Below the pieces are notes generated by a model. That model saw nothing but the letters and a program-made list of their open reading frames with translations, ran no database searches and was not told the DNA's origin. From Alphaproteobacteria bacterium (GTDB lineage Bacteria > Pseudomonadota > Alphaproteobacteria > Micavibrionales > Micavibrionaceae): a stretch of DNA of 63,592 nucleotides. Below, piece by piece: positions 10,188 to 63,567 of the stretch (the first letter of the stretch is position 1; each line of letters begins with the position of its first letter). Location: assembly GCA_039808785.1 (NCBI GenBank), contig JBDHTT010000001.1:1-63592 (forward strand), given 5' to 3'. Position numbers and translations under genes: made by a program.

Positions 10188-10191
10188 CGCG

Positions 10192-13156: not shown

Positions 13157-13290
13157 TTGGCGTGGATTAAAAAAATAACTTTTAATTTCTTAAGTATTAC
13201 AACAGCTAACCATTAATATAAAATTTTCACGCTACAAGAGCAACTGGCAATCAAAAGTTTGTTTTTAAAATTGATAGCAAAGGTAAAAAG

Positions 13291-14007: not shown

Positions 14008-14021
14008 GGAAAGTGAAGTAA

Positions 14022-15493: not shown

Positions 15494-15717
15494 AAAAGTA
15501 CTCTTAACTGCTCGGCCCCAAAAGTCGAGATGTGCCCACCATTGTAATACAGACTTCTACCATCTTTAGAGATATTGCAGCGATTTACGTCGCAGAAATA
15601 ATTTATGGGGTCAAGAATGCTGAGATTTTGGTTTCCTTCATTCATACGTGAGATGAACAAAATCGGCTGGCGTACTGCCCGTAATCCATCAATGTCTGCC
15701 CTGTATTGTAACGACAT
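15454..15717 (-). pseudogene. Internally deleted O-acyltransferase (OafA/YrhL acyltransferase-3 plus SGNH type) relic
   Basis: The 87-codon ORF joins an acyltransferase-3 N-terminus (YRADIDGLRAV) directly to an SGNH-domain-like C-terminus (ILDPINYFCD..C....DGRSLYYNGGHISTFGAEQL). The roughly 500-600 aa in between are missing. Its 3' end overlaps the convergent methyltransferase gene. Confidence 0.55.
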
Positions 15718-15729
15718 ACCTAAGGTATC

Positions 15730-18233: not shown

Positions 18234-18247
18234 TTTGTATTGAATAC

Positions 18248-19096: not shown

Positions 19097-19104
19097 TTCA
19101 AAAC

Positions 19105-20274: not shown

Positions 20275-20441
20275 ATTGATTGAAGTCTATTTCTTTCTCC
20301 AGACGAACCCTAGAGCTGTTTCACAAGCAACCTTTAACATTATTTTTTCTTCATTATTTGTTTTTATTGTATTATCTGATGATCCGCAACTTGATTTCTC
20401 CTATTTGAGTACAGATCAACCGTAAGAGGAAGTGAAATACC

Positions 20442-28317: not shown

Positions 28318-29226
28318 CTAATTCAAATAGTCATGTAAATTAAGATTTAGAATGCGGACAGAGGCCGAGTATGAGGCCTCGATTTGCGTTTGCACCTCGG
28401 TCAGCAGGACAGAAGCCGAAGGGATGTCGGCCTCTTTAATGCTTGAAACCAACTCACTTAAATTAACTTTATCCTTATCATTTTGATCAACTTGATTTTG
28501 CAATGTATTAGCATCAAGCGACAAAGTTCCTTGAATGGTGGCCATCCCGTCAATGGCTTGGCGAATCAAAGCAGATGCTTCTTGTAGGGCAGTTTTATTG
28601 CTGGGGTTATTATAGGCCAAATTATAACTGCGTAGGAGCTGTTCAAACGCCGGATTGCTGGCCAACACACCATAGGTCACAGTCATGCTTTCCGATGATT
28701 GCACACTGTTGATCGTAGAGTTTCCTTGATAATAAGATGAGTTTGCAGTGGAGGGTGTTGTCTGTGGCACCCAGGCCGGATCGGTTAAATCCACAGGCGC
28801 AGTTTCAATATCACTTCCCGAAAATAAATAACGATTGCCAATTTTAAGATTAAGCAGGGATTGGGTTTCTTGTAACGCATTATCGGCCTGGGCCTGTGTT
28901 ACCGTGGGGTCCACAATATCTCCACCCAAGGCGGCAGTGAGGGCGGTAATCATACTATTGGCCAGATCAATCATTTGCCCCACCGAATCAAACATGGTGT
29001 TGACATGCGCAAGCACTGTGTTGGAATTTCCAGTATAGGTGGTAAGGCGCCGCGCGACGCTCTCAAGTGAGAGAAGATTCTGAGAATCCGTGGCAATCCC
29101 CTTATAATCCTGTGATTTCAGGCCGGAGCTGATTTGCGTATTGACATCGGCATACTTGGTTTGCAGACGCATGTTATCGGCAATCATTTGATTGGTGAAT
29201 GGATAGGTCGCGACACGATTAACCAT
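28318..29226 (-). CDS. flgL: Flagellar hook-associated protein 3 (hook-filament junction, flagellin-like)
   Basis: 302 aa. Flagellin-type N-terminus (MVNRVATYPFTNQMIADNMRLQTKYADVNTQISSGLK) and C-terminus (EADIPSASVLLTEVQTQIEASYSASVRILNLNLHDYL). Sits directly downstream of flgK. Confidence 0.8.
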   Translation of the reverse strand: MVNRVATYPFTNQMIADNMRLQTKYADVNTQISSGLKSQDYKGIATDSQNLLSLESVARRLTTYTGNSNTVLAHVNTMFDSVGQMIDLANSMITALTAALGGDIVDPTVTQAQADNALQETQSLLNLKIGNRYLFSGSDIETAPVDLTDPAWVPQTTPSTANSSYYQGNSTINSVQSSESMTVTYGVLASNPAFEQLLRSYNLAYNNPSNKTALQEASALIRQAIDGMATIQGTLSLDANTLQNQVDQNDKDKVNLSELVSSIKEADIPSASVLLTEVQTQIEASYSASVRILNLNLHDYLN

Positions 29227-29244
29227 GATATTCTCCTAATTCTT

Positions 29245-30984
29245 CTACCTCATCGCATTGATCAAATCATCCAACATTTTTTGAATGGTGGAAACAACTT
29301 GGGCAGCGGCTGCATACTGATTCTGATACACCAACATTTTCGCCGTTTCTTCATCAATATTGACCCCAGACACACTAGTGAGCATGTCGCTACTGGCTTT
29401 ATAGACTGTTTGTGCCGTATCACTTTCACTTTGTGCAATGCTTGCTTGGTTGGCAGCATTGGCAATATAGGCTTGGGCATATCCCAACAACGTATTGGAT
29501 TGCGCCGCAAAATTTCCGGCGGCTGCGAAACTATTGCTTGAGATCAGCATATTGGCCAGTGCGTCAGCTACCGACCCATCTCCCTTCGCTACACCGCGAT
29601 CGCCAACCGCCAAGGTTGCACTGGAACTCAGAACACCCGTGCTCAGATAATCGGGATTAGACAGAAGGTAGCTAGAGATCTGAATATCCTCTGCACTTGT
29701 CCCCACAAAGAGATCATTGAGCCCGAAATATTGTGAGAAACTTTCGTTTGATGAACTCGTGACTTGGCTGCCAAGCGGGTTGATGACAACACCGTTGGAT
29801 AATGGCATCACAGCCAAATTCAACTGTCCCGAAGAATTCAATGTGGCCGTTAATCCGGGAACAGTGTTGAGCGCAGTCAACACATCATTGACCGTGGTCA
29901 TCGCAGCCAAATTGATATCGGAATAATTTTGGATGGTGCCGTTCCCATCCGTAATCGCCACACGAATCGTGCCTGTGGCGGTAAAGGCCGTGCCAGCCGT
30001 CAACCCTGCGAGCGACCCCGTCATCACGTTGCGCGGCGGGTTGGAAGCACCGGTGTTGAGCAAAGTATTCACCTGAGCTTGCAGGACGCTCGCCAGCTCA
30101 TTGAGCTTTTCTTGCTCATCAACATAGGTCTGGTCACGCAATTGAATATTGGCGCCGATATTGCCGTCCACAATCGAATTGGTGATGTCAACCCCATCCA
30201 AATTAATGGCGGAAAACCCGGTCGGATACGTAATTGACCCATTGACGATATTGGTCACGTTGTAACTTAAATGATGAACATCGGAAAGCAGCAACGCCTG
30301 ACCCGCCGATGTATAAATCTGCATGATGTTATTGCTGTTGTAAAAATACTGAATATTCATTTCCGCCGAAAGTTTTTGAATTTCAGTATTCCGCTGATCT
30401 TCATATTCCGCCATGCTCGCATCTTGGGCATGGGTGGAAGCGATTTTGTTATTCAGCGCATCAATTCGATCCAAAATTGCATTTACATTATCAATGGATG
30501 TTGCAATTTTTTTCTCGGCTTCTACTCTCTGGGTTTGAATGGTGTCAGACATACCGCGTAACGACCCCGCCAGATAATTCGCGGTACTTACAGTATCCGC
30601 TTTATTTGAAGCCACTTCAGGCGTGGTGGACAGAGCCTTCAGTGATGAATACATATGATCAATATAAGTGCTCAAACTATTATTACCGTCCGCACTTCCC
30701 AACTGAGTATTGTAATAGTTGAGCGACTGGCTCACTGTACTGGCCTTGCTATAGGTACTCGTATCATCGGAAAGGGCCTTGGTTAGAAAAGCGTTGCCTG
30801 ACCCAACGACCAAACCGGATACAGGCACCGACCCGATATTGGTCGTGATATAACGTGTATCGAGCGATTTGCGGGTATAACCTTCCTTATCCGCATTGGT
30901 AATATTCTGAGATGACAAGTTGGTTTTGAGCTCTGTCGTCATCATCCCGCTGAGGGTCATATTCAGGGCGCTGGTTAATGCCAT
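29245..30984 (-). CDS. flgK: Flagellar hook-associated protein 1
   Basis: 579 aa. N-terminus MALTSALNMTLSGMMTTELKTNLSSQNITNADKEGYTRK and C-terminus SGVNIDEETAKMLVYQNQYAAAAQVVSTIQKMLDDLI are both FlgK hallmarks. Confidence 0.88.
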   Translation of the reverse strand: MALTSALNMTLSGMMTTELKTNLSSQNITNADKEGYTRKSLDTRYITTNIGSVPVSGLVVGSGNAFLTKALSDDTSTYSKASTVSQSLNYYNTQLGSADGNNSLSTYIDHMYSSLKALSTTPEVASNKADTVSTANYLAGSLRGMSDTIQTQRVEAEKKIATSIDNVNAILDRIDALNNKIASTHAQDASMAEYEDQRNTEIQKLSAEMNIQYFYNSNNIMQIYTSAGQALLLSDVHHLSYNVTNIVNGSITYPTGFSAINLDGVDITNSIVDGNIGANIQLRDQTYVDEQEKLNELASVLQAQVNTLLNTGASNPPRNVMTGSLAGLTAGTAFTATGTIRVAITDGNGTIQNYSDINLAAMTTVNDVLTALNTVPGLTATLNSSGQLNLAVMPLSNGVVINPLGSQVTSSSNESFSQYFGLNDLFVGTSAEDIQISSYLLSNPDYLSTGVLSSSATLAVGDRGVAKGDGSVADALANMLISSNSFAAAGNFAAQSNTLLGYAQAYIANAANQASIAQSESDTAQTVYKASSDMLTSVSGVNIDEETAKMLVYQNQYAAAAQVVSTIQKMLDDLINAMR

Positions 30985-31489: not shown

Positions 31490-31559
31490 GTATAACGTCA
31501 ATCTTGAAATTTTAATTTTTTCTGCTATACTGAATGATGTCGGATTTATCTGACTATGA

Positions 31560-31955
31560 TGCTAAACGCTTTGTGAAATAGGCGTCGTGGACCCGGGGGC
31601 AGTGCCCGGCGGCTCCACCATAAGCTGAGAGGTTATAGTGGGGAGGGCGAATCGCCCTTGGGTGGTTTAAACTCCCCACTCGCGCCTCTCATCTTACGAT
31701 GGGGCCGAAACAGGATCGACACGCGTAATAAAGATAGAGTCTGTATCCGTTTGAGGTACGGTCGTATCCGTCCAAATTTGATAAATGCAAATGATAATGC
31801 AAAAACCGTAGTTGCCGCCAATGACAACGTCTTCGTTGCCGCTGAGGAAAAAGCCGCTGCTTAATTGCACCGGTAAAACTACATAATCCCTCTTGCATCA
31901 GCGAGGGGTGGGGCGCGGGGCGGCCTAGCAACAGAACCGCCCCGATTTTATTTTA
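31560..31955 (+). ncRNA. ssrA: Two-piece (circularly permuted) tmRNA
   Basis: The acceptor piece ends CCGGG-GGCAGTG-CCCGG-CGGCTCCACCA at 31620. The coding piece starts GGGGCCGAAACAGGATCGAC at 31701. GGGGCCG pairs with CGGCTCC, including a G3:U wobble (Ala identity). The tag reading frame 31817-31864 encodes ANDNVFVAAEEKAAA plus stop. The terminator hairpin is GGGGCGG/CCGCCCC (31917-31943) followed by GATTTTATTTT. The 5' boundary of the acceptor piece is approximate. Confidence 0.8.
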
Positions 31956-36722: not shown

Positions 36723-38120
36723 CTATTTTTCATTCAGGGAGTTTTGCGCAGTTTTAAGAATCGGCTTCATCAAATACTCCATCACGGTTTTATGCCCGGT
36801 GACAATATCCACCGTGGCAATCATACCGGGAATAATCGGCAAAGGCTTGCCGTCGCGATGAAGCGCATTTTCATCCGTCCGCACCAAAACGCGGTAAAAA
36901 CTCTCGCCCTTTTCGTTGCGAATCGTGTCAGGTGAGATATCTTTGACCTTACCCTTTAATCCGCCATAGATGGTAAAATCATAGGCGGTGATTTTCACCA
37001 TTGCCTCCATATCGGGGCGCAACCGCGCGATGTCGGATGGTTTAATTTTTACCTCCACCAACAAATTATCATCCACGGGCACAATTTCAACAATCGGATC
37101 ACCCGGGCGCACAACCCCGCCCACAGTGTTGATTTTGTAATCCTTAATGGTGCCGTTGACGGGTGAACGGATTTCGGTGCGATCCTTTTTATCCTCTAAA
37201 GCCCCCAGAGATTGTTTGACGGTATTGAGTTCAATGGTCTTAATCGCGAGGTCAGATTGCGCCGTGGCCACCGCATCTTTTTTCATGCCGGCGATTCGTG
37301 CCTCGGCCTCCGCAATTGCTGATTTTGCGCGGGGGATCGCCTGATACACACCATTTAATTCGGTTTGTTTTTCCTTGATGCCGCGCTCCAATTGAATGAG
37401 TTCGATTCTAGGGGCGGAGCCCTTGGCCACCAAAGGCTCGATCATACTGAGTTCTTGTTTCGAGAGGTTGATGACGCCCTGTAAATCGCCCGCGCGGGTG
37501 CTGAGCTCATTAACTTCTTGTCGGCGTTGCGAGAGTTGTTGTTGCAGCACGTCAATCTCACCCTGTTGTTTCGCGCGATTGGCCTTAAAGGCGTTGAGTT
37601 CCTCAATCACGCTTTGCGGCGCGGATTTTGAGACATCGTCGGGAAAGCTCACGCTGTCCTTGCCGTCCACCTCGGCCTGAAGCCGCGTGATGGTGGCAAG
37701 CAACCCCAAATAGCGCGCCTGATTCGTGCCCAAATCCGAGTTCGCGCCGACATCGCGCAGCCGCATGACGATTTCATCTTTTTTGACCGATTCGCCCTCT
37801 TTTTTCAGGAACGCATCGACGATCCCGCCCTCCAGATTTTGAATCACCTGAACTTCACCCGCGGGAATGATTTGCCCCTCACCGCGCGCGGTTTCATTGA
37901 TTTTGGCAAAGGATGCCCACACCACAAAGGCCGTGAAAAAGATGAAGGTCGTGACCAAAATCAAATGTTTATGGAGCGGCATGTCTTCATCACTCATGAA
38001 GAATTTTTCGGCGCGCGCAATGGCTTTGTCGGCCTGAATATTGCGGTGATGTTGTGCCTTTTCTTGTGCTTTTTCCTGGGCTTTTTTTGGGGCGGATGCC
38101 TGATTCGGATTTGTACTCAT
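36723..38120 (-). CDS. HlyD-family type I secretion periplasmic adaptor
   Basis: 465 aa with an N-terminal TM, a long coiled-coil centre and a C-terminal PGMIATVDIVTGHKTVMEYLMKPI motif. ATGA overlap with the upstream ABC gene. Confidence 0.85.
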   Translation of the reverse strand: MSTNPNQASAPKKAQEKAQEKAQHHRNIQADKAIARAEKFFMSDEDMPLHKHLILVTTFIFFTAFVVWASFAKINETARGEGQIIPAGEVQVIQNLEGGIVDAFLKKEGESVKKDEIVMRLRDVGANSDLGTNQARYLGLLATITRLQAEVDGKDSVSFPDDVSKSAPQSVIEELNAFKANRAKQQGEIDVLQQQLSQRRQEVNELSTRAGDLQGVINLSKQELSMIEPLVAKGSAPRIELIQLERGIKEKQTELNGVYQAIPRAKSAIAEAEARIAGMKKDAVATAQSDLAIKTIELNTVKQSLGALEDKKDRTEIRSPVNGTIKDYKINTVGGVVRPGDPIVEIVPVDDNLLVEVKIKPSDIARLRPDMEAMVKITAYDFTIYGGLKGKVKDISPDTIRNEKGESFYRVLVRTDENALHRDGKPLPIIPGMIATVDIVTGHKTVMEYLMKPILKTAQNSLNEK

Positions 38121-40474
38121 ACGGCACCCCCCTGTTGGCCCATCGGTTGACCCGCTTGTTGTCCCGCTTGTTGGCCCCCGCCGAATTCGCGGTTTTGCAG
38201 ACGGCGAATAATTTCATCCCGCGGACCAAAGGCCAAAATTTTACCGCGATCAATCAGGATAATTTTATCCACCAATTCTAACATCGCGCCCTTATGGGTG
38301 ATTAAAATCGTGGTTTTGCTGCGTGAAATCACCCGCAAACGTTCGCGCAATTTAATCTCAAAATTCGGGTCCATTGAGGCTGTGGGCTCATCGAGCAGTA
38401 AGATCGGCGGATCATAAAGCAACGACCGCGCAATCGCCACGGCCTGGCGTTGACCGCCGGAGAGAGCCTCCCCCCGCTCGCCGACCTGGGTATCCAATCC
38501 TTTTTCCGAATCTTGCAAAAACTCCATTACTCCAGCGAGTTCAGCGGCGCGCACCACCGCGCGATCAGGCGCAGTTTCATGCCCCATCGTGATATTTTCA
38601 CGAATCGATCCGTAAAATAAATTCGGGCTTTGTTGGACTGCCCCGATTGAACGGCGCAAATCACCCGGATCAATTTGGCGCACATCGGTGCCATCGAGTA
38701 AAACCGCCCCGTTGCTGGGTTGATACAGATTAACCAGCAAACGGGCCAAAGTGGTTTTCCCCGATCCCACCGCGCCGATAATCCCGATATGATCCCCCGG
38801 CTCAATGGTCAAATTTAACCCCTTGACCGCCGGATAGGTTTGGCCCGGATATTTGAAATCCACATCGCGGAATTCAATGCGCCCCTCTAACCGCGGCATT
38901 GAGATAAAATGCTTGCCCGCCGGGCGTTCCACGGGGCGGCGCATGAGTTCTTCCAATTGCTTCAAGGCCTCAAGACTTTGATTATAACGCGTCATAAGCC
39001 CCGCAACCTGGGAAAGCGGCCCAAGTGCGCGCCCAACCAGCAATACGCTCCCCACCAACGCCCCTTGAGTGATTTGCGCATCCGCAATCATGAACACGCC
39101 CGCAATCACCATCCCCACCACCGTGATTTGCTGGATAAAATAAGAAAAATTCAGCGCAAAAGCCGCAATACGCTTGGTTTTCACCGATATGCGCGATCCT
39201 TTGTCCACCAATTCTTCCCAACGCCGCTGGATATGGCCTTCGGCGGCTTGAGTTTTAATCGTCTCCAGCCCCGTAATGGTTTCAAAGAGCAGCGCGTTTT
39301 TGAGCGCGCTTTCCTGCATCGATTGCCGAATCACTTTTTGCATCGGCTTTTGCAACAACCATCCGCACGCCACAACGATAGGAATGGCAACCAGCGCAAT
39401 AATCGCCAGCGGCCCGGCAATCACCGCGATGATCAGAATAAAGAAAAATGAAAACGGCAGATCAATCAGTGCCGCCATCGTGGCCGAGGTAAAAAAGTCG
39501 CGAATCGTTTCAAATTCGCGCATATTATTGGCCAAAACCCCTGCACTGGCGGGGCGGGCGGTTAGGGTCATCCCCAGCAATTGTTCAAATAATTTGGATG
39601 ATATTTTCACATCGGCCTTACGCCCCGCGACATCGAGAAAATAAGCGCGCATATTTTTCATCACCAGATCGAAAATATACACAATCATCGCCCCGATTGA
39701 GAGCACCCAAAGCGTTTCATAGGATGAATTGGGAATGACGCGGTCATAGACGTTCATGATATAAAGCGTGCTGACCAACGCAAAGCAATTGATCATCACC
39801 GTACCCAGAATCACTTCGCGGTAGAGCGCCCAATTTTCCTTGATCGACCCCCAAAACCAATCGCGCGCCGTGTCAATTTCCGCCGGTCCCGCGCGGTCAT
39901 CCACCCGCGCAACCGGGCGCAGGAAAAAACAATATTCGGTATAAATCGGCTTAATGTCGGAAAAACGCACGGATTTTTTATCGCCGGCATTTTCGGGGAA
40001 TTCGACCAATAATTGATATTCGTCATCACCCTGTGGGCCAAAATCTTCGCTTTTTTTCGCGGATTTTTTGCCCGATTTCCCCCCGGCCTTTTTCAGCTTT
40101 TTCACCGCCCATAAAATACAGGCCTGACCATGCTCCAACACCAAAATACACGGTAAATTGGGGGCAATCATCAACGCCTCTAAACTCCGCGCCTGCATAC
40201 GCGAATTCATATCGGCGCGCATCGCCGCGCGTTCAAACAGGGCGGGCGTAATGCCCTGCGGGGGGATCGGCAAACCGGCAATCAGCGAATTTTCACTGGT
40301 GCGGCGGCCATAATGCCCCGCCAAAATCCGCAGACATTCAACAAGCGGGGAATGCATCGCCGCGCGATCAGCCTCCAACGGCCATCCATCGACAATATTC
40401 GTGGAAACGGTTTGTTGATCAGGGGAAGATTGAGGCCGATTGGTAAAATTTGCAGGATTTTCAGGATTCATCAT
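38117..40474 (-). CDS. Type I secretion system permease/ATPase (HlyB/LssB-type with an N-terminal C39-like domain)
   Basis: 785 aa. N-terminal PLVECLRILAGHYGR...AGLPIP...RAAMRADM..LPCILVLEHGQACIL. Six-TM domain, Walker A GAVGSGKTT, signature LSGGQRQ and Walker B ILLLDEPTASMD. Confidence 0.85.
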   Translation of the reverse strand: MMNPENPANFTNRPQSSPDQQTVSTNIVDGWPLEADRAAMHSPLVECLRILAGHYGRRTSENSLIAGLPIPPQGITPALFERAAMRADMNSRMQARSLEALMIAPNLPCILVLEHGQACILWAVKKLKKAGGKSGKKSAKKSEDFGPQGDDEYQLLVEFPENAGDKKSVRFSDIKPIYTEYCFFLRPVARVDDRAGPAEIDTARDWFWGSIKENWALYREVILGTVMINCFALVSTLYIMNVYDRVIPNSSYETLWVLSIGAMIVYIFDLVMKNMRAYFLDVAGRKADVKISSKLFEQLLGMTLTARPASAGVLANNMREFETIRDFFTSATMAALIDLPFSFFFILIIAVIAGPLAIIALVAIPIVVACGWLLQKPMQKVIRQSMQESALKNALLFETITGLETIKTQAAEGHIQRRWEELVDKGSRISVKTKRIAAFALNFSYFIQQITVVGMVIAGVFMIADAQITQGALVGSVLLVGRALGPLSQVAGLMTRYNQSLEALKQLEELMRRPVERPAGKHFISMPRLEGRIEFRDVDFKYPGQTYPAVKGLNLTIEPGDHIGIIGAVGSGKTTLARLLVNLYQPSNGAVLLDGTDVRQIDPGDLRRSIGAVQQSPNLFYGSIRENITMGHETAPDRAVVRAAELAGVMEFLQDSEKGLDTQVGERGEALSGGQRQAVAIARSLLYDPPILLLDEPTASMDPNFEIKLRERLRVISRSKTTILITHKGAMLELVDKIILIDRGKILAFGPRDEIIRRLQNREFGGGQQAGQQAGQPMGQQGGAV

Positions 40475-40591
40475 GACTTACGGCCTCGTTTTCGCCCGAT
40501 CAAAGTCTTCTGTTCGTTATAGGCGCAGAGCGTTAGATCGAAAACGCTCCACTCACCAAAATTAATAGCAAAAATTCTTGCGCAGAAAGCT

Positions 40592-42265
40592 TTAACCTTG
40601 GCGTTTGATTTCACCGCGGCTGGTTTTCACCGGATTCACCTCACGCGGATAGGATACGCCCAAACTCGGCAATAACGCACCTTTCAACGCCAACAAACGA
40701 TAGGTCGAAAACATCTGAAGATATTCGTTATTAATCGCATTGCTGCGGGAAACAAACCACTCATTTTGCGAATCAAGAACATCCAAAAGCGTCCGGCGAT
40801 CAAGGTTAAATTGATCTTTATACGCCTGAACCACCATCGCATTGGCATCGGCCTGGGCGCGGAATTGTTTGGCGCGTTCGGACGCCGCAATCATCGTGGC
40901 CCAGGTTTGGCGCACATCACGTTCCACGACGCGGGCGGTGGCGTTACGCTCACTCTTCGCTTGGGCTTGGCGATAGGTAAATTCACGGCCGCGCGCAATA
41001 TCCCCGCCACCGCGATAAAGATTCCAGTTGGCCACGAGCAGGGCGGAAGCATCCTGCGTGCGCCCTTCAACCCCATCCAGATCATGCCCGGCGGAGGCCC
41101 CGGCCTGGAAATTCAATTGTGGATAAAGTGTGGATTGCGATTGCTTGCGTTCGGCCTCGGCCACATTCACATCCGCCTCACGAATATCAAGGGTCGGACT
41201 TTGGGTGAGCGTATCTTTCACCTCAGCATCCACATCCTGCGCCAATAAATTGAGTGGGGTAAGCGGGCGTTGCAAATCCGGCTGCGGATCATCGCCCACG
41301 CGGCGTCTGAAGTTTGACTCAGCCGTGCGCAGGGCTTCCCGTACGGCGGATTCTTGGGCTTCGGCGGCAAACACACGCGCCTTGGTTTGTTCAATATCAG
41401 CCCCAGTGGAACGTCCCGCCCCGGTGCTGTCCTGAATTTGTGCAAGGATTGAGCGGTGCTGAGCCAAATTTTCCTCGGCAATTTTCAACAACTCGCGTTG
41501 ACGCAACACATCGACATAAAATTCGATAATATCCAACCCAACAAATTCCGCGGTTTCGCGTACGCGGTGCGATGCCGATCGCACACGTTGGCGTTGACGT
41601 TCATTCTCATAGTACGAATCAAACCCGTCAAAAATTCGTTGGGTTAAGGTGATGGATGCCTGTGATCGCCATAAATCGGAATGCCCCTCGGGTGCGTTTT
41701 CGGGATCGCTATTAATGCTTTGATATCCCGTATCCCCACGGAAATCAATGGATGGTAAATAGAGCGCCTTGGCCTGTTGAAATTCTTCGTCCGTCGCGCG
41801 GCGATTATTTTGAACGGTTTCGGTTTCCGGATTGGTCAAAACCCCAACAGCCACAGCATCGCGCAGCGTCGTAATCCTGTCCCCGTTCGGGCGGTTGGTG
41901 GCCGACATAATTTGTGTCACTTGGCCAGGGCCGTTGCCCAAATTTTGATCAGGCGATGTGACGGACAAAATCGGCGCGGCAGGGCGCGAAAGCTCAACAT
42001 CATTGGCATATGCCCTGTTATCACCGCCCATCACGGGCATGGGGGCTGCGGGTTGCGCATAGGGGCTGGGGGCATAATTGCCAACGGGCGCGCCCGTGGG
42101 TTGTCTGCCCATGGGTTGTCCTGTGGGAACGGGCAAATCTTGCGATGCGTCAGGTGCATAACCGCCGCCATATCCCATATCCTGCGCCTTGACATTCAAA
42201 GGACATAATGAAAGGGACAGAGCCGCAGCACATACGGATAAGAATTTTAATTGATTTCGTTTCAT
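40592..42265 (-). CDS. tolC: TolC-family outer membrane channel with a Pro/Gly-rich N-terminal extension
   Basis: Signal peptide, about 100 aa of low-complexity P/G/A-rich sequence, then two TolC repeats (LRDAVAVGVLTNPE..., ...NEYLQMFSTYRLLALKGALL). Confidence 0.8.
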   Translation of the reverse strand: MKRNQLKFLSVCAAALSLSLCPLNVKAQDMGYGGGYAPDASQDLPVPTGQPMGRQPTGAPVGNYAPSPYAQPAAPMPVMGGDNRAYANDVELSRPAAPILSVTSPDQNLGNGPGQVTQIMSATNRPNGDRITTLRDAVAVGVLTNPETETVQNNRRATDEEFQQAKALYLPSIDFRGDTGYQSINSDPENAPEGHSDLWRSQASITLTQRIFDGFDSYYENERQRQRVRSASHRVRETAEFVGLDIIEFYVDVLRQRELLKIAEENLAQHRSILAQIQDSTGAGRSTGADIEQTKARVFAAEAQESAVREALRTAESNFRRRVGDDPQPDLQRPLTPLNLLAQDVDAEVKDTLTQSPTLDIREADVNVAEAERKQSQSTLYPQLNFQAGASAGHDLDGVEGRTQDASALLVANWNLYRGGGDIARGREFTYRQAQAKSERNATARVVERDVRQTWATMIAASERAKQFRAQADANAMVVQAYKDQFNLDRRTLLDVLDSQNEWFVSRSNAINNEYLQMFSTYRLLALKGALLPSLGVSYPREVNPVKTSRGEIKRQG

Positions 42266-48699: not shown

Positions 48700-49104
48700 C
48701 TACGCCTTATGATCTAGAGCTTTGGTCAGAGTTTCCTCCATTTCCTGCCCGGTTTTGAGGGAAATCGCGTTGGCTTTATAGGCATTTTCCGCTTGTTTGA
48801 GGGTGATTAGCTCCTCATCCGTACTCACATTCGGCGCATTGACCAGTCCGTCGGAATTAGCAAGCGGCGAATTCGGCTCATAACTCAGCACAAAAGGCGG
48901 GGAGCGATTCAATGAAACCGCTTCAACTGTACCACCCGTTTGGGAGAGGGTAAGAGCATCTTGTGGAGTATAACCACTATTTTGCCCCTTTGTAGAGGAT
49001 ATAGCCCCCACAGTGTCGGCATTGACAATATTTTGGGCGGCAATATCAGCCCTTTTGGCACTTGCCAAAAGCCCGCTTGTCGCGATAGAAATTGAATTTA
49101 TCAT
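48700..49104 (-). CDS. flgC: Flagellar basal-body rod protein, FlgC-like (isolated gene)
   Basis: 134 aa. N-terminus SGLLASAKRADIAAQNIVNADT and C-terminus YEPNSPLANSDGLVNAPNVSTDEELITLKQAENAYKANAISLKT align by eye with FlgC (YEPGNPLAD..G.V..PNV....EMV......R.Y.AN). Confidence 0.6.
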   Translation of the reverse strand: MINSISIATSGLLASAKRADIAAQNIVNADTVGAISSTKGQNSGYTPQDALTLSQTGGTVEAVSLNRSPPFVLSYEPNSPLANSDGLVNAPNVSTDEELITLKQAENAYKANAISLKTGQEMEETLTKALDHKA

Positions 49105-49154: not shown

Positions 49155-49667
49155 ATGAAGATTTATATGCATATTTTGTGGGGGCTTTTACTTTGCGCGC
49201 TCACTTTGGTTGTGAGCATTCCTGCGGCACAGGCTGGCCCCAAACTCGGGTCATCATGGTGGTGGTGGAATCACTGGGTTAACCAAGATTATATGCCCTA
49301 TTATGAAACCAGCATTAACCCCCATAACGGCCAATGGGATAGCGGATTGGGTGAGGTACAAGGCAATAATCCCGCCTGGCAACCATCGGACTGGATTTCC
49401 ATGAATGGCGGTACCGGAGTTGATTTAATCAATCGGTGGTATGTGGCCGATATTATTAAACGGCAATATTTGGATGATCATATCCCGTATTTGGATGTCG
49501 GGGTCAATTTTTATCACCTTTCGGGCTATGATCAACGGCGCGTGATGCAGACAGTGGATTATGTTTATCATATGACAAGCCGCCACCCGCGCATGTTTTA
49601 CCTCAAGGACGCTGATACCAATAAAATCATCGGATATTATGGCCCGGAAGGCCTCACGATGCAGTAA
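49155..49667 (+). CDS. Secreted Trp-rich hypothetical protein
   Basis: Signal peptide (..LVVSIPAAQA/GP), then GSSWWWWNHWVNQDYMPYY. No family recognised. Confidence 0.45.
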   Translation: MKIYMHILWGLLLCALTLVVSIPAAQAGPKLGSSWWWWNHWVNQDYMPYYETSINPHNGQWDSGLGEVQGNNPAWQPSDWISMNGGTGVDLINRWYVADIIKRQYLDDHIPYLDVGVNFYHLSGYDQRRVMQTVDYVYHMTSRHPRMFYLKDADTNKIIGYYGPEGLTMQ

Positions 49668-49945
49668 GCCTCTGAGAGTTTGTTTACAATTTCTAACAAC
49701 CCAATCTGATTTGCATCATCAGATTCTATGGCACATCACTATTTTGCCCTGCTATTTTGCACAGGGGCTTGTGGTTAATCTCATTGTTCATGCTGATGTT
49801 TGCGCTGGGGCGAAGATACCGTTCCAGTATGCTGGTAATTCTCATTTTAACAATTCCTCAGATTTTGTTAACTTTTAATTCCTACAATGGAATATAGTGT
49901 TTCTGTGCGCGCATTATGCGCGCTTTGCGTAGATGGTCTTTCAAT

Positions 49946-51469
49946 ATGAACAATCAGAGCGATGATTTCCTTTCTCATCAGCGTAGTGCCCAATGCAGCC
50001 GGTCGGCCTGTGTGTGCAAGGCTCAATTCTGTCACCAAAGCTCTAAAAATAGCGGATTTTCACTGATTGAGGTTTGTATCCTGCTTATACTCATCTCCCT
50101 CATTCTGACTCCGACCGTATATATGCTCAACCTCTACTATCAGCGATACAAAGAAGCCACGACGCAACAGGCAGTGGATACGGCTTCATCCGCACTCATG
50201 AAATATGCGTTGAAATTCGGCAAATACCCTCGCCCCGCCGATCCGTCACTGGCCCCCGGAAACGCTAATTTTGGACGGGAAGCAGCGGTTCCCGGTGCTG
50301 GATGGTTGGACTGTCAGGATGGAGCAACGCCGGCAAATGCTATTTGTCAAACTGTTGTAAATACATATCCCGTTGCAGCCCCTCCCGCCGTTATCATTGG
50401 AGCTCTCCCGTTTGCCGAGATAGGGGTTCCAATCACATCAGTGATGGATGAGAATGGCAATTTCCTGACCTATGCAGTGACGGCACCCTTAACAAATACT
50501 GCCACTTTTAACGAAAATGCAGGGGCCATTGACGTGCAAAATGCCGCGGGGCAATCCATTTTCTTTGTGGATGGGAATGGAGACGGGGTTGACGATTTTA
50601 CCATGCCGCGCGCGCATTTCATTGTTGCTAGCAATGGAGCGGATGGACTAGGTGCTTATTCTCCGGGTGGGCAGGTGGCCACGGCCTGTGCTGTGGCGGC
50701 GAATGGTGCAGATTCCGAGAATTGTAATCGGGATGGTCTGTTCCGCAATAATGCCGATCCAATCAGCCGAAAACGTCAGGTTGCGCTGGCGGTTGGGGCA
50801 GCCCATTTTGATGATCTGCTCTTTGCAACCAATAGTACCAGTTCAGGGTTATGGTCCAACACACCGGTCACGCCAGCTAACCCGAACTTAGGGATACGGG
50901 ATCGTTTGGGTGGCAATGTCGCGATTGGTGATTGTGGGGGGCGCACCCCCTGTGTCCCGGTTTCAAAGTTGGATGTTTACGGCTCTGTCAGGGCATCAGT
51001 GCAAGTGAAAGCCTTTCGTTTTAAAGGGCGTGGACCCGATACGGAAGGGACAGCTTGGTACGCCGTTGACGACCCGGGCAGGGTAGAAGATGGTAATGCC
51101 GCGACACGCGATGGCCGATGTACCTCCGCAACCGCTTGTCCCACAGTGGCGGCCAATGGTTGGGGTGGTGCAAATACGCCGCCCTTTCTTATGCCGAGCA
51201 CGATTGGAGGGGTTCCACCCGATCTTGATGTAGCCAGTGGCTATTATGTAGACGATACCGCAGGAACGCATGGGGCGTTTTTTCGCGGCAATGGCATAAA
51301 ATGCCCGAAAGATATGGCAATGACAGGAATCTTTGATAATGATGAGGCCTGTAATAGCACGAGTAGAGCAACACCAGGTTCAATTGCGCAAACAGGAAGT
51401 TGTTCCGTTCTCGGACAATACGCAATAGGAATTAACGCCGATGGATCGTTGAAATGCGGGTTTCCTTGA
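49946..51469 (+). CDS. Giant prepilin-type N-terminal cleavage/methylation domain protein, paralog 1
   Basis: Class III signal KNSG/FSLIEVCILLILISLIL. It shares motifs with the next two genes: KYPRPADP, LTYAVT, FIVASNGADGLGAYSPGG, GADSENC, HFDDLLF, NVAIGD...KLDVYGSVRA, and the Cys loops CPKDMAMTGIFDNDEAC and CSVLGQYAIGINADGSLKC. The start is uncertain (49916, 49946, or an internal GTG). Confidence 0.7.
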   Translation: MNNQSDDFLSHQRSAQCSRSACVCKAQFCHQSSKNSGFSLIEVCILLILISLILTPTVYMLNLYYQRYKEATTQQAVDTASSALMKYALKFGKYPRPADPSLAPGNANFGREAAVPGAGWLDCQDGATPANAICQTVVNTYPVAAPPAVIIGALPFAEIGVPITSVMDENGNFLTYAVTAPLTNTATFNENAGAIDVQNAAGQSIFFVDGNGDGVDDFTMPRAHFIVASNGADGLGAYSPGGQVATACAVAANGADSENCNRDGLFRNNADPISRKRQVALAVGAAHFDDLLFATNSTSSGLWSNTPVTPANPNLGIRDRLGGNVAIGDCGGRTPCVPVSKLDVYGSVRASVQVKAFRFKGRGPDTEGTAWYAVDDPGRVEDGNAATRDGRCTSATACPTVAANGWGGANTPPFLMPSTIGGVPPDLDVASGYYVDDTAGTHGAFFRGNGIKCPKDMAMTGIFDNDEACNSTSRATPGSIAQTGSCSVLGQYAIGINADGSLKCGFP

Positions 51470-51499
51470 GAGATATAATAGATTTTGGTTAATGTGAAA

Positions 51500-52765
51500 A
51501 TGTTTAAGAGTGGTTCAAAAAAGATCTATGTGCAACAAAGCCGTTCCACAGGGTTTACCTTAGTGGAAATTTCCATTGTTATGATGATAACAGGTTTGAT
51601 GCTCATCCCACTGCTCATGCTGTATTCTCAGTATGATTTGAATCGTAAAATCGAAACCACAAAATCAAATATGGCCAATGCCGAAACTGTGATGGCGGTT
51701 TTTTCGCCGCTGCGCTATCCGTGCCCTGCCGATCGTTCACTGCAGCCAGGTGATCCGAATTATGGTGTGGATATTTGCACGATAGCAGGGTTTACTCTGG
51801 CAGGGGTGCCGAATTGTGATGTTGGAGGTAATGAACAGGGATTTTGTAAAGTACCGGGGGCGCGTGACACCGATGATGATCCAGATGCCACGGTGGGAAA
51901 TAACAATGAATTTGTGTTAATCGGGGGGATTCCAACCATTTCAGCGGGACTAATCATTGCGGGCATGTCGGATGAAAAGACCCTTGATGGCTGGGGCAGG
52001 AAATTAAACTATGCCGTGAGTTATACGTCCTCGCGCCCCGACCGGACAGAAGGGTTTAACCGCTTTAAAAACGGTGTAATCAAAGTGGTGGATGAATTTG
52101 GTAATAATACGGCGGGTGTTAATGATGACGGGCAGTTTGTGATTTTTTCCTCTGGGGAAACTGGCTTGGGGGCTTATAATGCCAATGGGATTTCTACGCC
52201 CTGCGCTATCGTGACATCTGACGGAGAAAATTGTGACGGTGACTTCACGTTCCGCCAAGCTTTGGCGAATTCCGAAGGGGCAGGTAATGGCTTTTTTGAT
52301 GATCGGCTGCTGGCCTATAACGTGAGGGGGGGGGATTTATGGTTGACTGTCACTGATAATAATTTCCTTCCAACCACTCATATGCGTCCCTATTTTACTG
52401 GTGCGGTGGGTGTTGGCACCGCCACTCCGGCAGCTTTCCCCCCGACGGGGACCAATAATCTAATGCTTGATGTGGCCGGAAACTTGAGGGCCGGGGCGAT
52501 ACGAACCGACAATCTATGCAATCTGGATGGCAGTCTTTGCTTGAACATCAATTCAAACACCGGGTTTTTCGGCGATCGGCAACCAGGGATAAATAGCTGT
52601 GCCAATCCTGGCAATGTGATGACCGGCATCTCAGGCGGCCAAGTGGTCTGTAGCGCGCCGAGCATTGCCACCCCCGGTGTTGAGAAAACTTGTCCTCCAG
52701 GCTTTTTTTTAAAAGGTTTATTAAGTGATGGAAAAATCATTTGCAGTGATAATAATACGTATTGA
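51500..52765 (+). CDS. Giant prepilin-type N-terminal cleavage/methylation domain protein, paralog 2
   Basis: Class III signal RSTG/FTLVEISIVMMITGLML. Motifs RYPCPADR, DGWGRKLNYAVS (GspG-like), FVIFSSGETGLGAYNANG, DGENC, FFDDRLLAY, AVGVGTATP...MLDVAGNLRAGAIRTDNLC, and the loops CANPGNVMTGISGGQVVC and CPPGFFLKGLLSDGKIIC. Confidence 0.75.
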   Translation: MFKSGSKKIYVQQSRSTGFTLVEISIVMMITGLMLIPLLMLYSQYDLNRKIETTKSNMANAETVMAVFSPLRYPCPADRSLQPGDPNYGVDICTIAGFTLAGVPNCDVGGNEQGFCKVPGARDTDDDPDATVGNNNEFVLIGGIPTISAGLIIAGMSDEKTLDGWGRKLNYAVSYTSSRPDRTEGFNRFKNGVIKVVDEFGNNTAGVNDDGQFVIFSSGETGLGAYNANGISTPCAIVTSDGENCDGDFTFRQALANSEGAGNGFFDDRLLAYNVRGGDLWLTVTDNNFLPTTHMRPYFTGAVGVGTATPAAFPPTGTNNLMLDVAGNLRAGAIRTDNLCNLDGSLCLNINSNTGFFGDRQPGINSCANPGNVMTGISGGQVVCSAPSIATPGVEKTCPPGFFLKGLLSDGKIICSDNNTY

Positions 52766-52788
52766 AGTTAGTGGGAGGAACACCAAAC

Positions 52789-55620
52789 ATGTATCGAAAA
52801 TTGCCCCTGAGCGGTTCTGGCCGTAATGTTTGTGGTTTTACACTGATTGAAGTTGCGATCTCCATGATGATTCTGGGGGTCATTATGGCATCTGGTCTAT
52901 CGGCCTATCAGGTCTATAGACAAAAGCAAGAAATGACGAAAACCACCCAAGTGGTGCAAACGGTGAACCAGGCCCTACAAACCTTCAAAAGTAATTTTGG
53001 GCGTTATCCCTGCCCCGCCCCGATTTTGGAACCAAGAAACAGTGCCAATTACGGACGGGAGGTAAAGTGCGATGGATTTGTAGCCGGGAATGCAGTAGCA
53101 CCGCCTAACCCTCCAAATTTTTTTCCTGCGCCTCCACCTCTCCCTGCGAATGTCGGTAATATGACCGGTGTAGTGGCACAGAGCGAGGATATGACATGTT
53201 ATAGGTATCCCAACACACGAGGTGGTCAGCCGTGCTGCACTCTTACCGCAGCTGGTTTGGCAAAGGGTCTAAATAATTTAGGTCTAAACGATTTTGATGC
53301 GAATAGTGACTTCTCCTTCTATCTGCAATGGCTTGGCAGCACGAATCAACAGTTTCAATGTGCAATGGCGGGCCCCACCTACTATTTATGCGATTATGCA
53401 CCTCTTGCTGGCGCAATTACTCAACAAAACAACCAGCTGCAGGCAAATTTTGATGCTGCTGTGGTTGCGGCCAATGCCGCAAATGCCGCAAATGCCGGAG
53501 ATGACGACCCAGGCATAGCACTGACTCCCGGGCAGTGTCTCTCGGGTGGTACACCTGCGGCCCCGACGGTAAATGGCATTTGCGTGGAGCAGAGCGATCG
53601 ACTTGATATCCCGAGCCGCAATGTTCGGGTCGGGACCATTCCATTTCGGGATATGCAACTGGATGAAAAAGACACACTTGATGGTTATGGCAACCGATTA
53701 GTATATGCCGTTACTCAGGATATGGCCAACGTTGGCACATTTAGAGAAGATGGCGGCGGGATACGCATTATAGATAGTACCGGCGCAGATTTATCGAACG
53801 GCCCCCAATCGGCCGCCTATGTTGTCTTCAGTTCAGGGAAAAATGGCAATGGGGCAGTGAATGCTAATGGCATTGCCAATGCCTGTAATGGCAATGGGGG
53901 CGATTCTGAAAATTGCCGTAATTACTCATTTGGGGCGGCGGGGCCGGGTGCCAATATGGCCGCAACCTATCGCATGGATGTCACGGGTAATAATTTTGAT
54001 GATACGATGGCCTATTTCGTCGCCAGTGAAAACCCGTTATGGCGGCGCACAGCCCCGACGTCAGAGAGCGTGACAGATTTAAGCCAAGGGAATGTAGGTG
54101 TTGGGATATTTGATCCCGCCCAGATTACCGACACCTTAACCGTGGGGCAGAGTTCGGTTAACTATACGAACGATTCCGCGCAATATGGGCGTTTGGCCAA
54201 TGTGAACGGGGATGTGGCATTCCAAACTGGCTCGCTAAGGGTCGGTGACGGCAACACGGCCAACAATAAAATTTTTGCACCACAATATTGCGACCAAAAC
54301 GGAGCAAATTGTTTTAGGGTGGAGAATATTGCCGCACCCTATGACCCGGCCCAACCAGGTCGTGGAATGGGTGGATGTCCCGCAGGACAATATATGACGA
54401 GCATTGAAGCCGGAAACGCCAAGTGCGCCGCCATTCGTTTTTACTGTACCAATCCCGATGAAGTTTTTATAGGCTTTAATGCTGATGGGACGCCAAACTG
54501 TACTTTACCTAATAATAAGTGTACTGCAGGGATCGGGGAATTATGTGGCGTATCTTATTCACTGACCATGGGAGGTCACAATACTCCCCACACTTTAACA
54601 GCACCCAACAATTGTGCCAAAAAAACGTACACTTGTAATAATGGTACCTGGCAGGTTAATTCTGGGCCTGGTTATCCTGCCAGTGCCTATGATAGCGCGC
54701 ATTGTAGCTATAATCAGAATTCGGCAATGGCAAATACCCAAACTAAATCCGTGAGTTGTTCTCTTACACTTGGCGAAGGATACACCGGAAATGCTACGCA
54801 AGATTACTATATTGGCTGTGATGGTGAGCAAGTTAATGCCGGTGCGCCGAACAACTCCGCATGTCTATGTCAACCCGTTTACAAAACTGAAGAGTACCCA
54901 TGTTCAGGGAACTTAACATCCAAAGGCACCATCCATAGGATAAAATATAAACTGTGCAATGGCAATCAATTGGCCTCTGAATGGTCATACAAACCATGGC
55001 AAGTAGGCGGGACCGTATCCGAGGATGGACAATCAATTACTGGAGGGACATTATTATCAAGTTTGGGCACTGATGACCCAAGTGGTGCCTGTAGTTGCAA
55101 TATTCCGGACAAAATTGAATTTGCCAGTTGTGATGGGGGTGGAACAAGGCAATCATCTCCTAGTCCTTCCAGTTTTTCCGTTGATCCATATAGTTGGCCA
55201 GCAGATACGAGTATAGGAAAATGGCGTCATCTTAGTGCTAATATAAACCAATGCAAATATAATGACTCTGCCTGGAACGACTCAAACTGTACCAAAATGG
55301 AGGAATCTGATCCGGATTGTGCGGTGGGCTGTTATAAAACTCAAACCAAGAAAAAAGTACGGAAAGTTCGTTCCGGGAATGGCTGGATCGATGATCCGGA
55401 CACAAGCGGAAATACGGACGGAACCTGTATCGCCCGGACTTATATTTGGAAACCCGGAAGCGATCCAACCAACAGTGGAACCGGCGCCTATACCGGCCAG
55501 GCCTACCCCCATCCTAATGATGCATGTAGCTGTGACCAGGTGGAAAAAGTATCCGCATGTCTTGTTACCACGACAACCGGGTATACTTTCTTTGCCTGCA
55601 CCTGTCGTGAGTCGAATTAA
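52789..55620 (+). CDS. Giant prepilin-type N-terminal cleavage/methylation domain protein, paralog 3, with a Cys-rich C-terminal extension of about 400 aa
   Basis: GGGAGG lies 10 nt before the ATG at 52789. Class III signal [22 protein letters not shown]. Motifs [62 protein letters not shown]...SLRVGD, and the loops [17 protein letters not shown] and [20 protein letters not shown] long Cys/Asn/Gly/Thr-rich tail follows. Confidence 0.75.
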
Positions 55621-62894: not shown

Positions 62895-63006
62895 TTTGGA
62901 ATAATATTTTTATTTCAAATTATACGGCACTAAGCGCGGCGGACCTTGTTCAAAAGCCGGCCCCGTATGTGAGGGCTTTCATTAAGAATGAAAATTTTTA
63001 ATGAAG
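62895..63006 (+). repeat. Two-hairpin intergenic element, copy B (upstream of gcrA)
   Basis: TTTGGAATAA..TTATTTCAAA (62895-62919), a GC-rich core, then CGTATGTGAGGGCTTTCATTAAGAAT..ATTTTTAATGAAG. It shares ATTTTTATTTCAAATT-TAC-G and CGTATG-GAG-GCTTTCATTAA-AAT blocks with copy A at 25899-26021. Confidence 0.55.
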
Positions 63007-63036
63007 AAATTATACATGACTCTGGAGGAGAAAAAT

Positions 63037-63567
63037 ATGAGCTGGACCAATGATCGAATTGACCTTTTAATGAAATTATGGGGAGAAGGTAAAACTGCAG
63101 CCGAGATTGCTAAATCATTGGGCGGAGTTACCAGAAATGCCGTTATCGGCAAGGCTCATCGACTTAAGCTTTCTGGTCGGATCGCCAACACTCAAGAAGA
63201 AAGCTCAACGAAATCAGTTCAGAAATCCTCTAAATCCAAATCAGACTCCAAATCATCCCAATCTCGCCGTATCTCTAAACATCATGAAAGTGACATCGCG
63301 GCCCCTGTCGTTGCAGTTGCATTGCTTGAAGATGATTATTGCGCAGGTGAAGGTATTCAATTGGTTGAATTAAAAGAAGGTTTATGCCGTTGGCCAATTG
63401 GTGATCCTAAAGAAGCCGGGTTTAAATTTTGTGGTTCCAAAGTTCAAGGCGGTATGATTTATTGCACTCACCACTGCCATGTGGCGTATCAGGCTCCTGC
63501 AAAAAGCAAATTGCGGGTTGAGGAATTGGCCAAAATCGATGCGGATATTATTCGCAAAAAAGCATAG
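63037..63567 (+). CDS. gcrA: Cell-cycle transcriptional regulator GcrA
   Basis: MSWTNDRIDLLMKLWGEGKTAAEIAKSLGGVTRNAVIGKAHRLKLSGR and C-terminal CRWPIGDP...FCG...YCTHHCHVAYQ. GGAGGAG lies 7 nt before the ATG at 63037. The ORF-track ATG at 63001 lies inside hairpin 2 of the upstream repeat. Confidence 0.9.
   Translation: MSWTNDRIDLLMKLWGEGKTAAEIAKSLGGVTRNAVIGKAHRLKLSGRIANTQEESSTKSVQKSSKSKSDSKSSQSRRISKHHESDIAAPVVAVALLEDDYCAGEGIQLVELKEGLCRWPIGDPKEAGFKFCGSKVQGGMIYCTHHCHVAYQAPAKSKLRVEELAKIDADIIRKKA

Follow-up and report, generated by a model that had tools for sequence, protein, structure and literature searches.

In Myxococcus xanthus, the KilL/KilM/KilN Tips of the Kil (Tad-like) predation pilus are disulfide-rich heterotrimers encoded by dispersed three-gene cassettes (Herrou et al. 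2025, PMC12075869), in which KilN, the largest subunit, forms the extremity of the Tip (PMC12075869; review PMC12428579). In Bdellovibrio bacteriovorus, prey are recognised by mosaic adhesive trimer (MAT) fibres (Caulton et al. 2024, PMC10769870), whose beta-helix faces are built from several chains (PMC10769870). More generally, modular type IV pilins comprise more than 1,200 proteins distributed over 264 architectures, one of them with IPR030392 (PMC8179133). For prey recognition and prey holding by epibiotic predators such as Micavibrio, no mechanism is known, and the 2011 Micavibrio genome paper noted only "operons of prepilin-type proteins". Here, we describe a cassette of three prepilin-like genes (A, B and C) at positions 49916-55620 of a 63,592-nt stretch of Micavibrionaceae DNA (GenBank assembly GCA_039808785.1, contig JBDHTT010000001.1, positions 1 to 63,592 of the forward strand), the whole of which is called the window below. 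This cassette is a concrete, testable candidate for a prey-binding tip.

We consider it fairly probable that A, B and C are a set of modular minor pilins that jointly make up a type IV filament tip. The preliminary description of this DNA had proposed pilus-tip or surface-fibre adhesins, and the pilus-tip side of that proposal is strengthened by related cassettes, which directly abut type IVa pilus (T4aP) or Tad loci in 12 species. It had also considered such proteins to be of a kind not yet characterised. This holds for the family itself, which has neither a Pfam or NCBIfam family beyond its signal nor a fold match, but not for the general kind, since modular minor pilins and three-minor-pilin predation tips are precedents (PMC8179133, PMC12075869). 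The closest functional parallel would be the KilLMN Tips, by analogy and not by sequence homology. What is new here is a large family with a fixed three-subunit make-up and with neighbourhood ties to both Tad and T4aP machines.

Modular architecture of the three proteins

The small subunits are encoded by gene A (49916-51469, +), a 517-aa open reading frame (ORF) that leaves 470 aa and 13 Cys after predicted cleavage, and by gene B (51485-52765, +), a 426-aa ORF with a predicted mature form of 403 aa and 12 Cys. Gene C (52762-55620, +) encodes the large subunit (952-aa ORF, 927 aa in its predicted mature form, 41 Cys). The start codon of A is ambiguous (ATG at 49916 or 49946), and the public data call B as 421 aa from 51500 and C as 943 aa from 52789; the sizes first given, about 507, 421 and 944 aa, are close to those of our ORFs. 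A gap of 15 nt separates A from B, and B and C overlap by 4 nt, an operon-like arrangement within which no convincing internal terminator was found.

Each protein carries a class III (prepilin) signal with a hydrophobic stretch behind it, and the three signals initially read from the sequence were all recovered: G/FSLIEV in A (50054-50074, +; predicted cleavage after Gly47, with G-1, F+1 and E+5 present), G/FTLVEI in B (51551-51571, +) and G/FTLIEV in C (52834-52854, +). A motif scan showed that they are the sole class III motifs of the window, in which no Flp-type motif was detected. When compared with Pfam N_methyl (PF07963, cut-off 21.2 bits), C passes with 26.0 bits, B lies just under the cut-off with 19.4 and A is weak with 11.6, and only C passes the cut-off of TIGR02532. 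Most orthologs nevertheless match N_methyl (25 of 28 in the B class and 29 of 32 in the C class, E<=0.01), and no other Pfam family was found in these 60 orthologs at the same threshold. The signal residues of the B class (G18, F19 and E23) are invariant in all 28 orthologs. Moreover, a family profile built from these orthologs and searched against the PDB retrieves the alpha1 helices of type IV pilins (geopilin 1.8e-9, PilA 7.5e-6, PilE 1.4e-5, GspG 1e-3), supporting the pilin nature of the N-terminus.

The three proteins are paralogs, as indicated by BLASTP (A-B 2e-24, A-C 7e-15, B-C 3e-15), so that the relationship first noticed by eye is statistically supported. The ordered motif series that they had been said to share is indeed seen in a MAFFT alignment, although not in full, as A is without the DGWG block and C has a degenerate LDV.G..R segment.

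In the AlphaFold2 (AF2) models, the N-terminal helices of B and C span 47-52 residues. The model of B (predicted local distance difference test, pLDDT, 73) consists of a helix at residues 21-67, a confident globular domain at 70-280 and a low-confidence C-terminal part, and that of C (pLDDT 72) of a helix at 19-70 followed by a confident globular domain. Foldseek searches of the PDB with these models retrieved no fold match and no pilin (best E 0.7 for B and 0.18 for C), and the viral fold search in BFVD was likewise negative. The order of the secondary-structure elements, in which a long alpha-beta loop precedes four sequential strands, would be in keeping with a pilin head. C also contains a lineage-specific insert (53074-53574, +; residues 96-262 of the 943-aa form), modelled as partly helical with low confidence, which measures 167 residues in the window protein versus a median of 22 in the orthologs.

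Beyond the globular domain, all three proteins contain a fibre-type segment. In A, it reads GGNVAIG...P...KLDVYGSVRAS (50909-50998, +; from the alignment of the three paralogs), in B, GAVGVGTATP...LMLDVAGNLRAGA (52391-52498, +), and in C, it corresponds to residues 424-500 (54058-54288, +), where the pLDDT of the monomer model is below 50. In both monomer models, the low-confidence segment coincides exactly with this motif. Positions 280-320 of the family profile match Bdellovibrio bd2133 and a "cell wall surface anchor family protein" in the PDB, and a sub-profile of the C-terminal 160 residues of the B-ortholog profile matches five MAT crystal structures (8ond 4.2e-9, 8oml 2e-5, 8ol4 2.9e-4, 8ojn 1.3e-3 and 8on4 0.029). 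The common unit, about 35 residues long (...GnVGIgT.tP..kLdV.G.i.a), is equivalent to the capping loops found in the intertwined trimeric beta-helix, with the consensus V-G-G/N-pi-x-x-P-x-x-x-L. Because of these matches, the "tail-fibre-like" motif of the preliminary description can be regarded as real, with predator fibres as its nearest solved relatives. A tail-fibre or S74 domain as such had to be rejected, as the proteins match neither Peptidase_S74 (E<=1) nor any PHROG tail-fibre family nor any BFVD fold; IPR030392, mentioned above, is the entry that we take to be this S74 chaperone domain. The sub-profile also weakly matches MyRF (E 0.36), an outlier that the MAT authors retrieved with their motif as well (PMC10769870).

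The resemblance to MAT fibres thus concerns the capping-loop unit V-G-x-G-x-x-P-x-x-x-L...G (4.2e-9 to 1.3e-3) and, by proposal, a role as prey- or ligand-recognition device of a predator lineage with variable distal domains. In contrast, MATs start with a Sec signal and a conserved beta-rich N-terminal domain of 130 aa, continue with about 1000 residues of repeated fibre, often have an S74 chaperone, and are homotrimers and not pilins. The cassette proteins, for their part, are three different chains that begin like pilins, contain the unit once each and lack an S74 domain. As a separate observation, the exhaustive profile search described below retrieved a 5,875-aa protein (P0100) with 51 matches to profile positions 274-320, that is, the capping-loop unit; apart from pilins, this unit is therefore also used to build giant fibres of a repetitive kind.

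The fibre segment is followed by two Cys-loop modules in each protein. In B (52598-52744, +), they are two disulfide-stapled hairpin modules with invariant Cys (C367-C384 and C398-C415 in the 421-aa numbering); their counterparts are C463-C479 and C496-C514 in A (51302-51457, +; from the alignment) and C530-C546 and C553-C571 in C (54376-54501, +). The loops, of 15-16 residues, are conserved and are modelled by AF2 as beta-hairpins. The two copies recognised at first sight reflect an internal duplication, since module 1 of B aligns with module 2 in hhalign with 95% probability (E 3.4e-8).

Finally, C alone is extended by a Cys-rich and beta-rich distal region (54514-55620, +; residues 576-943) of repeated modules with pLDDT 75-90. 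These roughly 370 extra residues contain 24 Cys (6.5%) and are enriched in N, G, T and S relative to housekeeping proteins, in agreement with the Cys/Asn/Gly/Thr-rich extension described initially. Their length is conserved among 32 orthologs, and their internal repeat is detected with 94% probability (E 1.4e-7).

Considering known modular tip pilins as a comparison set (PilA/PilB/PilC of S. sanguinis, CofB of enterotoxigenic Escherichia coli, TcpB of V. cholerae and the type II secretion system's GspI-J-K), the cassette proteins share with them grafted functional modules, a predicted location at the tip combined with priming, and, as a proposal for the cassette, a hetero- or homotrimer at the tip (PMC8179133, PMC12075869). 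However, no similarity in sequence or fold is detectable beyond alpha1, all three cassette subunits are large, and none of their modules, be it the core, the fibre motif, the Cys hairpins or the Cys-rich repeats, is of the von Willebrand factor A, lectin or beta-repeat type.

The cassette family and its ties to filament machinery

Word-indexed searches retrieved 42 homologs each for B and C. All the named ones belong to uncultured Alphaproteobacteria or Micavibrio, and their names are only "prepilin-type..." or "type II secretion system protein". An exhaustive profile search yielded 2,329 representatives of clusters at 50% identity (E<=1e-30), of which the top matches are full-length, at about 400 aa. 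To locate cassettes in their genomic context, one genome per species was scanned with the peptide pattern ENC[DN][NG]Dx[TMI]F, derived from 9 sequences, since an alignment of 28 diverged too much to yield a pattern. The 80 loci obtained come nearly all from metagenome-assembled genomes (MAGs) labelled Micavibrio, "Pseudobdellovibrionaceae" (NCBI's family for Micavibrio), Alphaproteobacteria, Rhodospirillales, Rickettsiales or Midichloriaceae. No relative was found in a scan of 2.9 million viral contigs.

Complete runs of exactly three family genes occur in 33 cases among the 80 loci, the size patterns being small-small-Large (17), small-Large-small (10) and Large-small-small (2). A typical cassette thus combines two subunits of about 400-470 aa and one of about 750-950 aa. 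According to class hidden Markov models (HMMs), the core-clade cassettes all consist of one A, one B and one C, the margins being 140-720 bits, and gene A of the window falls into class A by 401 bits over the other classes; beyond the core clade, there is always exactly one large C-class subunit together with two small ones. Runs of 1, 2, 4 or 6 family genes also exist in some genomes. Two cassettes lie in tandem in L035 (1290-11227), L019 is also a multi-cassette case, and several MAGs have two or three loci (L045 + L048 + L052; L077 + L082; L078 + L085). Such tandem or dispersed cassettes suggest a repertoire of alternative tips.

The glutamate at position 5 of the processed signal (Glu5) is replaced by Gln, Ser, Thr or Asp in exactly one subunit per cassette in several lineages. 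The subunit concerned is C in the Micavibrio clade (L001, L012, L015, L017 and L039) and A in L003, L009, L038 and L044. Loss of Glu5 is expected of the first-assembled, tip-most subunit, as in GspK-type pilins.

The presence of the cassette also appears to vary within a species. In one M. aeruginosavorus genome (CP066681, L001/L013), it lies between metK/trmB and rimP/nusA, while the trmB-rimP position of M. aeruginosavorus ARL-13 contains only a 360-bp hypothetical ORF (GMV_1116), which indicates insertion or loss of the cassette within this species. A link of genes GMV_742-744 of ARL-13 (391/692/377 aa), together with their RNA-seq values, to the family was considered and rejected, their pyrD/pgsA flanks being absent from all cassette loci (searched with E. 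coli probes). Since no cassette locus has these flanks, the ARL-13 expression data cannot be carried over to the family.

Filament machinery was searched for around the 80 loci with genuine E. coli Gsp proteins and then with locus-derived probes. A type IV filament machinery gene was found within 10 kb of the cassette in 15 of the 80 loci; by a rough calculation, taking a 20-kb window and a genome size of about 2.4 Mb, a few percent would be expected by chance. Eight loci (L026, L030, L031, L036, L043, L047, L049 and L055) are of the T4aP type, with the order pilD-pilT-pilU-pilQ-x1-(x2)-araC-T4a pilin genes (1-3, of 250-290 aa)-cassette, and GMV_1530-1537 of ARL-13 form the same cluster. Between pilQ and the pilin genes, these superclusters always have a regulator of the AraC family and x1, an ABC-2-like membrane protein of 273 aa, and neither conventional minor pilin genes (FimU/PilVWX type) nor pilY1 were seen in the eight loci. 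Four other loci (L021, L025, L038 and L044) are of the Tad type, with the order cpaC-cpaD-cpaE-cpaF-tadB-tadC-TPR (tetratricopeptide repeat)-pilN-domain gene-cassette. In addition, a CpaF-like ATPase lies beside the cassette in L034, and PilC in L061 and L069. The idea that the linked machinery was uniformly of the T4aP type, its T2SSE proteins of about 550 aa being PilB, was overturned by a Pfam analysis of L025, which revealed a Tad/Cpa locus.

The window itself is different in this respect. Its 45 scanned ORFs (the three genes of the cassette, the four ORFs closest to it and 38 further main ORFs with a length of 150 aa or more, with hslV, hslU, glmS and nested ORFs set aside) gave no match to T2SSE, T2SSF, Peptidase_A24, Secretin or Tad families in Pfam, and phmmer probes from the related Tad and T4aP loci had no match in the window either. 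The initial remark that no assembly machinery occurs nearby is therefore accurate for these 63.6 kb but cannot be extended to the family, some of whose loci are linked to machinery.

A neighbour-joining (NJ) tree was built for 44 large subunits from 637 columns, with 200 bootstraps. In it, the clade of the window groups with the Tad-linked L025 (95% bootstrap). All eight T4aP-linked loci branch together, with L024 and L021 (84%), and L038 branches with L044 (92%). L025, where the cassette stands at the end of a Tad/Cpa locus, is the sole machinery-linked member of the window's own clade. All the cassettes, Tad- or T4aP-linked, share the T4a/type II secretion-type signal and not the Flp/Tad G/xxxxE-Y/F type. 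Regarding the machine used by the window cassette, phylogeny thus leans to Tad and signal type to T4aP. In ARL-13, T4aP genes (for a secretin, two PilT-type ATPases and PilD) coexist with a Tad locus that has a leader peptidase of its own, and prepilin peptidases are reported to be promiscuous (PMC12075869).

These results allow the parallel with KilLMN to be refined. In both cases, three minor-pilin genes form dispersed cassettes, with several cassettes per genome in some relatives; the subunits are modular and disulfide-rich, and the large one has a distal domain without PDB homolog. Both are found in predatory bacteria, and the four relatives of the cassette named above (L021, L025, L038 and L044) lie beside a Tad locus. 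In contrast, the Kil subunits are TadE/TadF/TadG homologs, while the cassette proteins have a T4a/type II secretion-type G/FTLIE signal matching N_methyl, and no TadE-like Pfam match was found in A, B and C (E<=1) or in the 60 orthologs (E<=0.01). The cassette subunits are also mutual paralogs with the same domain order, a MAT-type motif and Cys hairpins, and eight related cassettes are attached to a pilT/pilU/pilQ-type locus instead of a Tad one.

A putative tip complex and its alternatives

In the reading that we favour, A, B and C would each be inserted in the inner membrane via their hydrophobic alpha1N segment, and an A24 prepilin peptidase would cut them behind the conserved Gly, the filament machinery (prepilin peptidase, ATPases, platform, secretin and major pilin) being presumably encoded elsewhere in the genome. 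The three alpha1 helices would then bundle and seed the filament, and the post-globular regions would join through the MAT/tailspike-type capping-loop unit and the two disulfide hairpins into a short fibre, for which a 1:1:1 heterotrimer is the favoured stoichiometry. The 370-residue Cys-rich repeat region of C would project furthest and bind a target surface, prey or host cell. The major pilin would polymerise below the tip and push it through the secretin. The tip would be at once assembly-priming complex and adhesin. Judging from the pilT/pilU genes of related loci, retraction could pull the cell onto its target.

Several observations weigh against this proposal. The canonical pilin globular fold was confirmed neither by Foldseek nor by HMMs, each chain has one copy of a fibre motif of only about 35 residues versus several copies in MAT fibres, and all three window proteins keep Glu5. 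The window, which is one part of the genome, has no machinery gene, and 65 of the 80 cassettes are unlinked to machinery; where linkage exists, the machinery is of two kinds (Tad and T4aP), leaving the assembly route ambiguous. Furthermore, the locus sample rests on a single peptide pattern and is hence biased, and the NJ phylogeny is a simple one based on one subunit class.

The best-surviving alternative, which we still consider unlikely, is that the three proteins form no single complex and are independent modular pilins, serving as three alternative homotrimeric tips, like the CofB and TcpB homotrimers of type IVb pili, or as low-abundance shaft subunits and giving the filament three different binding specificities. 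It is in line with the homotrimeric state of MAT fibres and of the type IVb tip pilin CofB, and with the runs of 1, 2, 4 or 6 family genes; the Glu5 kept in all three window proteins would also let any of them sit below another. However, if the subunits were interchangeable, each should have been gained and lost independently of the others, whereas one subunit of each class, or one large and two small ones, are kept across deep divergence. The gene overlaps moreover suggest coupled expression, and the distal domain is present only in C.

It is less probable, and in our view doubtful, that the proteins are membrane-anchored fibres of the envelope or surface, in which the pilin-like helix would be a mere anchor or export signal never entering a filament, making them a functional alphaproteobacterial counterpart of MAT fibres. 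The window without machinery, the many unlinked cassettes, the globular domains without detectable pilin fold and the motif common to MAT fibres, which are not pilins, could all be accommodated in this way. Nevertheless, Gly-1, Phe+1 and Glu+5 are invariant in the B-class orthologs, as is characteristic of proteins that are processed by the peptidase and packed into filaments. In 12 species, pilin and machinery genes stand right beside the cassette, and an anchor in the inner membrane could not span the periplasm and the outer membrane to reach the cell surface.

A still weaker case can be made for divergent type II secretion pseudopilins that would replace GspG/H/K and drive the secretion of hydrolytic enzymes. 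This idea is suggested by the database names of the homologs, by the N-terminal similarity to the GspG family TIGR01710 and by the absence of GspC/G/H/K from the Micavibrio annotation (Wang et al. 2011). The "GspG-like pseudopilin core" of the preliminary description, however, failed every HMM test (NCBIfam, Pfam and hhalign). The alignment to TIGR01710 covers only profile positions 1-61, T2SSG (PF08334) has no Pfam match in the whole proteins A, B and C, and the isolated core regions of ten members have no Pfam match of any kind, T2SSG included, at E<=10. In hhalign comparisons with genuine E. coli GspG/H/I/J/K, the match to GspG is again confined to alpha1; the best alignment to its globular half (14% probability) involves a block, GVIxVxDEFGN...FVxxSxGxxG, that differs from the DG(W/Y)G..L.YAV block named earlier. 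We therefore no longer count the GspG-like core among the supported claims and retain it as a hint only. In addition, the linked machinery consists of PilT/PilU with 250-290-aa pilins, or of Tad, and never of GspC/L/M, and a periplasmic piston has no obvious use for Cys-rich extensions of 400-900 residues with a fibre motif. We therefore judge a type II secretion role to be very improbable.

A prophage remnant or phage-derived tail-fibre genes, brought to mind by the VGIGT..P...LDV.G unit also present in phage S74-type tail fibres (PMC10769870), are effectively refuted by the negative PHROG, BFVD and viral-contig searches, by flanks devoid of phage genes and by a cassette GC (0.49) that matches that of the window (0.47).

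Returning to the tip complex, a more elaborate version of it can be proposed only tentatively, and we hold it to be more doubtful than the tip function itself. The cassette would belong to a hybrid organelle, a type IV filament tipped by a heterotrimeric, tailspike/MAT-like beta-helical fibre that is stapled by disulfides and capped by the Cys-rich domain of C. This organelle might be the prey- or host-recognition device of Micavibrio-like Alphaproteobacteria, with a cassette exchangeable between Tad and T4aP machines and existing in thousands of variants. The cassette shares a structural unit with the prey-recognition fibres of an unrelated predator, Bdellovibrio. Together with the Kil Tips, this suggests that predatory lineages reached three-pilin tips separately or exchanged fibre modules. 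The family also offers new modular pilin domains for structural work.

Surroundings of the cassette in the window

The neighbours named in the preliminary description were all confirmed, with hslVU downstream and genes for a 170-aa Trp-rich protein, an FlgC-like protein and a YkuD L,D-transpeptidase upstream. The flanks are not conserved among the related loci. The hslVU/cysQ/glmS flank is shared only by the closest relative, the 80%-identical L010, in which the upstream flank is not shared, and the window neighbours are therefore considered incidental to the system. The possibility that they form part of it was rejected on the same grounds.

The orphan gene for an FlgC-like rod protein (48700-49104, -) is divergent from that of the secreted 170-aa Trp-rich protein (49155-49667, +), for which no family match was obtained. 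This pair recurs in the MAG of L059 (11973-12938; E 1e-24 and 5e-31), there too some 3 kb from a pilin cassette, and is not present in L010. Flagellar genes are scattered singly or in pairs over the window and not grouped into large operons, with flhA at 5031-7145, flgK and a flgL-like gene at 28318-30984, and the flgC-like gene at 48700-49104.

A low-GC island at about 8500-21350 (0.34-0.44, versus about 0.5 elsewhere) contains glycosyltransferases, S-adenosylmethionine (SAM)- and TylF-type methyltransferases, a GNAT protein and an ABC exporter, and is probably a horizontally acquired cluster for surface-glycan synthesis or flagellin glycosylation. A transfer-messenger RNA (tmRNA) gene at 31525-31955 (+), with the tag peptide ANDNAKTVVAANDNVFVAAEEKAAA, was flagged by ARAGORN as permuted (two-piece). 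Permuted tmRNA is typical of Alphaproteobacteria, and this form is consistent with the GcrA gene found at 63001-63567. Together with the homologs, of which all the named ones come from Alphaproteobacteria or Micavibrio, both features support an alphaproteobacterial origin of the DNA. Finally, a complete type I secretion set is encoded at 36723-42265 (-), with an HlyD-family adaptor, a 785-aa ABC transporter and a TolC-like OEP protein; type I systems of Micavibrio have been proposed to export RTX/hemolysin-like predation factors (PMC3189940).

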